Of a DNA stretch of 62,080 bases, positions 51,195-51,609 are shown one piece after another; the first letter of the stretch is position 1; every line of letters begins with the position of its first letter. This stretch comes from Candidatus Micrarchaeota archaeon. Its GTDB lineage: Archaea; B1Sed10-29; WALL01; WAMD01. The notes beneath the pieces were generated by a model, which ran no database searches, was not told the origin of the DNA, and saw only the letters and a program-made list of their open reading frames with translations. Where the stretch lies: contig CAZZDL010000001.1 in NCBI GenBank assembly GCA_964652335.1, positions 1 to 62,080 on the forward strand. The letters run 5' to 3'. Made by a program: the position numbers and the translations under genes.

Positions 51195-51609
51195 AGAGGT
51201 GGCTGGAGACGCTGACAAAAAAAAGAGAGGGCCTGATACTCTATTGGTGCGAAGGAGACAAATATACCAGTAAAGGAAAATACAAAGTGGCAGTAACATC
51301 CACAGACCCCAATTATTGCGGTTGTTTGTTGGTTGGCTAGAAAACCATTATGGGGTTCCTAAGGAAAAGCTGAAAGCAAGAATTCAGCTTTGGCCCGGGA
51401 AAGATGAATGGCTTGCTGTCGGTTGGTGGTCAGAACAATTGGGAATTCCCAAAAACAACTTCATAAAAAGCAACGTAAAGAAACAGAGCGGAAAAAAAGA
51501 CAAGGCCCGTTTTGGTGTCTGCCGAGTTTATCTTGATTCCAAAGGACTGCTCGCAAGGATATTAAATGACATTGATCTGGAGTTCGGCCATCCAGCCACC
51601 TACTGAGAC
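51195..51609 (+). other. Archaeal BHB-type tRNA intron (about 415 nt)
   Basis: 3-nt bulges TAA and ACA flank the 4-bp helix CTCA:TGAG; outer 11-bp helix 51197-51207:51591-51601. Confidence 0.8.
51197..51606 (+). pseudogene. Frameshifted, ATG-less single-motif LAGLIDADG-like homing endonuclease remnant inside the intron
   Basis: Frame 2 reads ...REGLILYWCEGDKYTSKGKYKVAVTSTDPN up to TAG 51338. Frame 1 (open 51274-51606) continues LLRLFVGWLENHYGVPKEKL...LGIPKNNF...FGVCRVYLDSKGLL. Confidence 0.45.

Follow-up and report, generated by a model that had tools for sequence, protein, structure and literature searches.

A broken LAGLIDADG-type endonuclease gene within a BHB intron of the initiator-type tRNA-Met gene of a Candidatus Micrarchaeota archaeon

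LAGLIDADG endonuclease genes have been described in protein-spliced BHB introns of archaeal rRNA genes, among them those of I-DmoI, I-Tsp061I, I-Vdi141I, I-PorI and I-ApeI, and the element reported here likewise combines a LAGLIDADG gene with a protein-spliced intron of a stable-RNA gene. The host gene, however, is that of the initiator tRNA rather than of an rRNA, and whereas I-DmoI is a two-motif monomer, the family described here consists of a single-motif domain of ~130 aa. Its motif, Y-W-x-E-G-D-K, is like the second motif of I-DmoI (YVAEGDK), E117 included, but the similarity is limited to ~40 residues, and the copy that we started from is broken. I-CreI, I-MsoI and I-CeuI also have one motif per chain and the arrangement alpha-beta-beta-alpha-beta-beta-alpha (VIA-align Z 3.8-4.3); they are, however, proteins of 160-220 aa encoded within organellar 23S rRNA genes, in introns of the self-splicing group I type, and a search of PDB sequences gave no sequence-level match between them and our family. 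A homing endonuclease tied to an anticodon-loop intron is also known from the bacterial initiator tRNA gene, but there the intron is a group I intron and the enzyme has a PD-(D/E)XK fold, not that of LAGLIDADG proteins. The bacterial relatives of the present family have their gene just downstream of an intron-bearing tRNA-fMet gene and not within the intron.

Two concepts from the literature bear on such arrangements. In collaborative (trans) homing, as in cyanophage psbA and F-CphI, a free-standing endonuclease acts together with an ORF-less intron (PMC3984707), and the same paper summarises the cycle of invasion, degeneration and loss of homing-endonuclease genes formulated by Goddard and Burt. 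A link between group I and BHB introns has been proposed by Tocchini-Valentini and colleagues, as cited in PMC6125680. Homing endonucleases are never mentioned in a 2014 review of tRNA introns (PMC4090602), and our full-text searches and reading of reviews found no endonuclease gene in an archaeal tRNA BHB intron; the published endonuclease genes that we did find belong either to BHB introns of archaeal rRNA genes or to group I introns of bacterial tRNA genes.

The locus lies in a stretch of 62,080 nucleotides (contig CAZZDL010000001.1 of assembly GCA_964652335.1), which as a whole is referred to as the window and for which an earlier note had proposed a decayed LAGLIDADG-like gene inside a tRNA intron. 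Our analysis of the locus and its relatives makes it quite probable that this is a BHB intron of the only initiator-type tRNA-Met gene, brought there by a homing-endonuclease gene that is now just starting to decay.

The interrupted tRNA gene and its BHB intron

The tRNA-Met(CAT) gene occupies positions 51156-51646 of the forward strand, on which all features of the locus lie. ARAGORN missed it in a default run, whereas a run with introns allowed detected a 415-nt insert after nucleotide 37. The 5' exon (nt 1-37) extends over 51156-51194 and the 3' exon over 51610-51646, the latter being identical to the 3' exon of a related genome, G003. Between them, at canonical position 37/38, the intron runs from 51195 to 51609 according to ARAGORN and junction folding, with a boundary that is ambiguous by one A. 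An A1:U72 acceptor pair and three G:C pairs closing the anticodon stem are hallmarks of archaeal initiator tRNAs; the interrupted tRNA has both and therefore looks like an initiator. The source genome (G000; 821 kb in 51 contigs, 96.8% complete) encodes a second CAT tRNA (C27:1332-1444), which is elongator-like, with a G1:C72-type acceptor and a 38-nt intron, and isoleucine is read by a UAU tRNA. The interrupted gene is therefore the only initiator-type gene found in this 96.8%-complete genome, the remaining tRNA introns of which are 16-94 nt long.

Folding of a junction mini-construct, together with direct reading, placed the two sides of the BHB at 51189-51206 and 51592-51610. At the exon-intron junctions we found two 3-nt bulges, UA/A (51193-51195) and AC/A (51608-51610), and a central 4-bp helix in which CUCA (51189-51192, nt 32-35) pairs with UGAG (51604-51607). 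The outer helix is formed by (G)A-GGUGGCUGG at 51196-51206 and CCAGCCACC-U(A)C at 51592-51603; with 10-11 bp and one bulged A, it gives the structure a near-canonical form. The BHB is fully canonical in the introns of loci L036, L045 and L047, and junction folding indicated that the sequence of the outer helix diverges yet its pairing is kept in L017, L028, L036, L045 and L047. The genome encodes the splicing endonuclease EndA (domain score, 121 bits) and the ligase RtcB (575 bits). As no other initiator-type tRNA gene was found in this 96.8%-complete genome, we infer that the intron is removed from the pre-tRNA. A group I intron was rejected for the window and its archaeal relatives, as no match to RF00028 was obtained.

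We also noted a C/D-box sRNA at 51051-51105 (+), ~50 nt upstream from the tRNA gene, in which all four boxes (C, D', C' and D) are present. Its top Rfam matches, sR1 and sR2, are under the gathering score, and its position is kept in a related genome, G002 (L107:1388-1442).

A single-motif LAGLIDADG gene in two frames

The earlier note had described two reading frames within the intron, one from 51197 open to TAG 51338-51340 and the other from 51274 open to TGA 51604-51606, neither containing an ATG, and direct reading of the sequence confirmed these points. It had further regarded both frames as parts of one gene, and this was upheld: intact homologues of 122-137 aa span both, which speaks against unrelated origins. 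These homologues emerged when the longer frame was searched against 1.8 billion representative proteins, yielding 99 matches, among which the intact proteins of 122-137 aa match the other (51197) frame with their first ~35 residues. Over its full length, the read-through of the two frames (P0004; 135 aa) is 41-48% identical to intact homologues, and its tblastn match to L017 (E 3e-54) is far beyond chance. The closest relative, L017 (63% identical), belongs to an uncultured archaeon whose genome measures ~0.8 Mb. Its ORF is intact, giving 131 aa when counted from the second GTG, and occupies a 412-nt intron; the host is again an initiator-type (A1-type) tRNA-Met gene, interrupted at the same site. 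The gene is likewise intact in the orthologues at L028, L029, L036, L045, L047 and L053. No further copy was found in a search of G000.

DNA alignment with L017 shows that a single frameshift does join the frames, as proposed, but its site is a run of four C at 51307-51310, slightly upstream from the interval 51311-51320 that had been favored. One base is missing from a Pro codon, the window having GAC CC- CAA (51305-51312) where L017 has GAC CCT CAA, and after the frameshift the old frame runs on to TAG 51338-51340. The N-terminal third of the gene, with the LAGLIDADG helix and first hairpin, thus extends over 51212-51309 in the frame of 51197 and the C-terminal two-thirds over 51310-51606 in the frame of 51274; the ancestral ORF had 131 codons and nearly fills the intron. 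Its stop codon, TGA 51604-51606, falls within the UGAG strand of the central BHB helix, and a stop within cTGAg was likewise found in L017, L029, L036, L045, L047 and L053. At the other end, the Shine-Dalgarno-like GAGGTG (51196-51201) forms part of the outer BHB helix and precedes the former start codon by 7 nt; in the same place there is GAGGTG in L017 and GGAGG in L036.

The family start position is occupied by ACG (51209-51211), which in alignments stands opposite the second GTG of L017 and the N-terminal Met of the intact homologues; these begin with M-L/F/I-T/S-K-R/K-E-G-L, in the form M-L-T-x-R-E-G-L-I-L-Y-W-C-E-G-D-K. A canonical start (ATG, GTG or TTG) is present nearby at each of the 48 close loci, at a distance of no more than 6 nt in 41; in the 51197 frame of the window none of these codons was found from 51152 to 51340. 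With the start lost (ACG) and one base of the C-run lost, no full-length enzyme is possible, and the intron therefore no longer counts as an autonomous mobile intron but as a former one. Two candidate starts were rejected: GTG 51199 lies in another frame, with a stop ~22 codons later, and in a circularised intron the 51197 frame, if extended upstream over the junction, would reach TGA 51573-51575 with no start between. Truncated or frameshifted family members occur in databases too. The window copy is an ordinary pseudogene, and the interest lies in the element and the family.

The LAGLIDADG-like assignment, which in the earlier note had rested on sequence patterns, is borne out by a family profile match to I-DmoI, by the AF2 fold and by structural matches. 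The motif G-L-I-L-Y-W-C-E-G-D-K is encoded at 51230-51262, with the putative catalytic Glu codon, GAA, at 51251-51253. Among 32 family members, residue E19 is kept in at least 90%, G20 is invariant and K22 is invariant or nearly so, and all three are intact in the window copy. Searched against all PDB sequences, the profile of these 32 members returned essentially only I-DmoI (E 4.3e-6); the family sequence L-Y-W-x-E-G-D-K aligns on the second I-DmoI motif, L-Y-V-A-E-G-D-K, its Glu and Gly falling on E117 and G118. AlphaFold2, run with the family alignment, predicted a single domain of alpha-beta-beta-alpha-beta-beta-alpha topology (pLDDT 90.2, pTM 0.84). When this fold was compared with known structures, LAGLIDADG domains made up 7 of the 9 top VIA-align matches at modest Z scores (5.0-6.5); the top nine of this exhaustive search include the TliVMA intein endonuclease domain, WhiA, I-DmoI, E-DreI and I-Tsp061I (Z 5.2-6.5). 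A Z of 5-6.5 is in the middling range of the tool's own scale, and the enrichment for LAGLIDADG proteins is consistent. The I-DmoI match is to its second domain, at 21% identity, and I-CeuI, I-Vdi141I, I-CreI, PI-SceI, PI-PfuI and I-MsoI were found among the lower matches. Foldseek against the PDB gave no LAGLIDADG match, returning weak OmpA/MotB-like and IspF rows only, which we judged spurious.

The Pfam LAGLIDADG models that had been recommended for detecting the domain proved unsuited, as they matched neither the fragments nor the read-through nor ten intact homologues. No match was found with the NCBIfam LAGLIDADG models or with single-sequence phmmer against the PDB, and in the protein database the family has no Pfam domain and no meaningful name. 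The comparison with I-CreI held for the single-motif, single-domain architecture; the nearest solved relative by sequence, however, is I-DmoI. A family-like domain does adjoin a Pfam LAGLIDADG_3 domain in one 417-aa protein (L015) from a genome of the same order. Proteins of 417-426 aa with a family-like domain were seen at L015:1060-2310 (G008) and L014:1012-2289 (G010), both in this order, and that of L015 has an N-terminal HTH besides its LAGLIDADG_3 domain; the two may be two-domain relatives of the intron enzyme. The profile and fold matches suggest that the intact family members are single-motif LAGLIDADG homing endonucleases, with a presumed nuclease activity, target site and capacity for homing.

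Occupied and empty sites in archaea and bacteria

Within the phylum, 16 initiator 5' exons were found in 31 genomes. The 3' exon stands directly next in 13 of the 16, ORF-less introns of ~30 nt interrupt two (G027 and G010), and only the gene of G000 has a long intron. G003, which belongs to the same family but another genus, is the one further genome of the phylum with a long intron, counted from a contig (C67) that begins inside the intron ORF (L004:1); its ORF is homologous (57% identical), its 3' exon identical, and apgM follows downstream. In G002, of the same family and a third genus, the C/D-box sRNA, the tRNA gene and apgM occur in the same order, and the tRNA gene has no intron. Related genomes thus differ in having or lacking the intron at one and the same site, as is characteristic of mobile introns, and the same 37/38 site is occupied in other genomes, including an Asgard (Hodarchaeota) MAG. 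The genome of L017 was not among the matches in the 31 phylum genomes searched, so that the nearest relative appears to lie outside the phylum, which suggests that the element may have moved horizontally. Assembly breaks in the intron ORF were seen in G062 (contigs C54 and C33), as in G003; such breaks may stem from strains that differ in having the intron or lacking it, or from indels inside it.

The family is found within tRNA genes or next to them in many archaea and some bacteria. Relatives were retrieved from species-representative genomes (10) and from metagenomes (364), and 90 loci were examined. At 10 of these an A1-type tRNA-Met gene is interrupted at 37/38 by an intron of 380-412 nt that contains the endonuclease gene; the UGA of the central BHB helix serves as its stop codon at all but L028, which ends in TAG. 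Only the 5' junction was found at two more loci, one of them that of the Hodarchaeota MAG (L024). A maximum-likelihood tree pairs the window copy with L017 (support 100/96). The stages of the Goddard and Burt cycle can be recognized at one site: empty in G002, with an intact gene in L017, freshly broken in the window, and with ORF-less mini-introns in G027 and G010. That model, however, was described for group I introns, whereas the vehicle here is a BHB intron in a tRNA gene.

Two further layouts were found at the same site. At L018 (a Heimdallarchaeota MAG) and L049-51, an empty BHB mini-intron of 16-17 nt occupies 37/38 and the gene lies ~60-85 nt downstream, followed at L018:1316-1925 and L049:981-1650 by a direct repeat of the 3' part of the tRNA (29 nt and 21 nt, respectively). 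In L049 this second copy begins exactly at the 3' splice site and has a 20-nt T-loop insert. On bacterial contigs, one of them binned as Saccharibacteria, the gene directly follows a tRNA-fMet gene whose anticodon loop is interrupted by a group I intron at or next to 37/38; these introns scored 96.6, 79.4 and 57 bits with RF00028, and one more, at 47 bits, fell just under the cut-off. The bacterial copies nest within the archaeal tRNA-Met clade in the maximum-likelihood tree (support 98/93). At the CPR-type loci L033:830-1170, L057:825-1170, L021:1145-1473 and L020:1167-1449, the order is split tRNA-fMet gene, LAGLIDADG gene, then elongator tRNA-Met gene. The layout of collaborative homing is matched by L018 and L049-51, with a mini-intron, and by L021, L033 and L057, with a group I intron; the window differs in that its gene is inside the intron, and cutting of the insertion site by the free-standing relatives is putative.

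All three layouts interrupt the near-palindromic anticodon arm, which fits an endonuclease recognizing the intron-less initiator gene. At L037 and L038, however, the gene adjoins an uninterrupted tRNA-fMet gene, and distant bacterial clades are likewise found beside uninterrupted tRNA genes, so that an uninterrupted anticodon loop cannot be the target across the whole family. The distant long forms, which are 30-38% identical and have an N-terminal HTH, fall into clades from metagenome contigs (L065-L106) and occur in tRNA arrays, each clade 20-80 nt upstream from one bacterial tRNA gene (Lys-CTT, Ile-GAT, Gly-GCC or Tyr-GTA).

Some loci have other arrangements. At L055 and L060, no more than ~15 nt separate the gene from '...CATAACC...' and the 3' half of a CAT tRNA of the G1:C72 type, an arrangement that could be a non-canonical-site intron or a split tRNA gene. 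A TATA-like 'TTTAAAAAG' lies ~40 nt upstream from the ORF at these two loci and at L023 (a Jordarchaeum MAG), where we saw no piece of tRNA downstream of the ORF. Besides its 37/38 intron with the endonuclease gene, the Hodarchaeota MAG shows an apparent second insert in the D-arm region of the 5' half of the initiator tRNA (L024:1400-1500), and this insert contains 'GGGGACTCATAACCCG', which is like a tRNA anticodon arm.

Age of the break, alternative explanations and significance

The earlier note had described the endonuclease gene as degenerating. That it is broken is supported by the frameshift and the lost start, but the signal of purifying selection indicates that decay is very recent and not advanced. 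Over the N-terminal 32 codons, the window and L017 share 94% protein identity (pN 0.034; pS 0.71, saturated; dN/dS ~0.016-0.02). The C-terminal 98 codons are 56% identical to L017 and 57% identical to G003, with pN of 0.27-0.32 and pS saturated; for L017, pN over these codons is 0.32, pS is 0.71-0.75 overall and the C-terminal dN/dS is <0.1. A three-point estimate from pN against L017 and G003 makes the window branch no longer than the others, and neither half contains extra stops or indels. The strong past purifying selection on both halves implies that the break is recent.

The same constraint, together with the unaccelerated window branch and the lack of any further stop or indel, would also be expected if the gene were intact in the organism, the missing C being a homopolymer error of assembly or consensus and the start being non-canonical or a second error. 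The frameshift does fall in a C-run, and the contig of G003 breaks a few bases from the same site, which may mark a spot that is difficult to assemble. We nevertheless consider this explanation unlikely: it has to account for two independent lesions, a substitution error yielding ACG is not expected in a consensus assembly, there is no ATG, GTG or TTG in frame over the 51152-51340 interval, and the assembly is not ridden with frameshifts, 89% of it lying within open frames of at least 120 codons. That the gene is expressed by recoding, with initiation at ACG and a -1 ribosomal slip on the C-run in which the Pro tRNA re-pairs from CCC to CCC, seems scarcely credible, even though a slip at 51307-51310 would give exactly the L017 sequence (the conserved D-P-Q-L-L) and the Shine-Dalgarno-like GAGGTG is kept 7 nt before the ACG. 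The site has no canonical X-XXY-YYZ slippery heptamer, the relatives use neither device and are all in frame with canonical starts, and ACG is not known as a start codon in archaea.

A different kind of objection concerns the family as a whole, which might comprise not nucleases but domesticated LAGLIDADG-fold nucleic-acid binders, similar to WhiA or maturases, that serve tRNA expression or intron processing, the window copy then being a dispensable remnant. WhiA LAGLIDADG domains score level with true endonucleases in VIA-align, the family is under strong purifying selection and the bacterial long forms bear an N-terminal HTH, all of which would suit a binding protein. The putative catalytic Glu and Lys of EGDK, however, are nearly invariant, the patchy, cross-domain distribution with an intron present or absent at one site fits a selfish element rather than a housekeeping factor, and no maturase requirement is known for BHB splicing. 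We therefore regard a non-nuclease role as very improbable and retain the reading of a homing-endonuclease gene that brought the intron and has only begun to decay.

According to this preferred reading, the intact relatives would produce a compact single-motif LAGLIDADG enzyme of ~130 aa from a reading frame that fills the intron, with the ribosome-binding site placed in the outer BHB helix, the start 6-7 nt further on and the stop inside the central BHB helix. As a homodimer, the enzyme would cut intron-less initiator-tRNA genes at the near-palindromic DNA of the anticodon arm, and repair from an intron-bearing copy would install the intron. Excision from the pre-tRNA by EndA and RtcB would leave little cost to the host. 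Once all copies bore the intron, the nuclease would no longer be maintained; in G000 the endonuclease would have been lost while the BHB junction stayed intact and the essential tRNA was presumably still made.

The initiator tRNA anticodon arm is conserved in all three domains of life. It is quite possible, although we would not yet come down on that side, that one LAGLIDADG lineage has specialized on this arm and travels with three kinds of intervening sequence at 37/38: long BHB introns that contain the gene, in archaea of DPANN size and an Asgard MAG; BHB mini-introns that are empty and have the gene next to them, in metagenome contigs and a Heimdallarchaeota MAG; and, in CPR bacteria, group I introns of tRNA-fMet genes, again with the gene alongside. 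If true, this would provide a living example of the endonuclease-driven spread of archaeal tRNA introns and would connect group I with BHB introns in a concrete way. As members of the family also occur beside group I introns that split bacterial tRNA-fMet genes at this site, the proposed link from group I to BHB introns becomes testable.

At 122-137 aa, the family offers some of the smallest LAGLIDADG scaffolds and may interest enzyme engineers. Archaeal tRNA introns are usually regarded as short, ORF-less and immobile. The locus and its relatives, in which every stage of invasion and decay is visible at a single initiator-tRNA site, point to a plausible vehicle for their spread, namely very small LAGLIDADG enzymes of a family that is dedicated to tRNA genes and lacks annotation.
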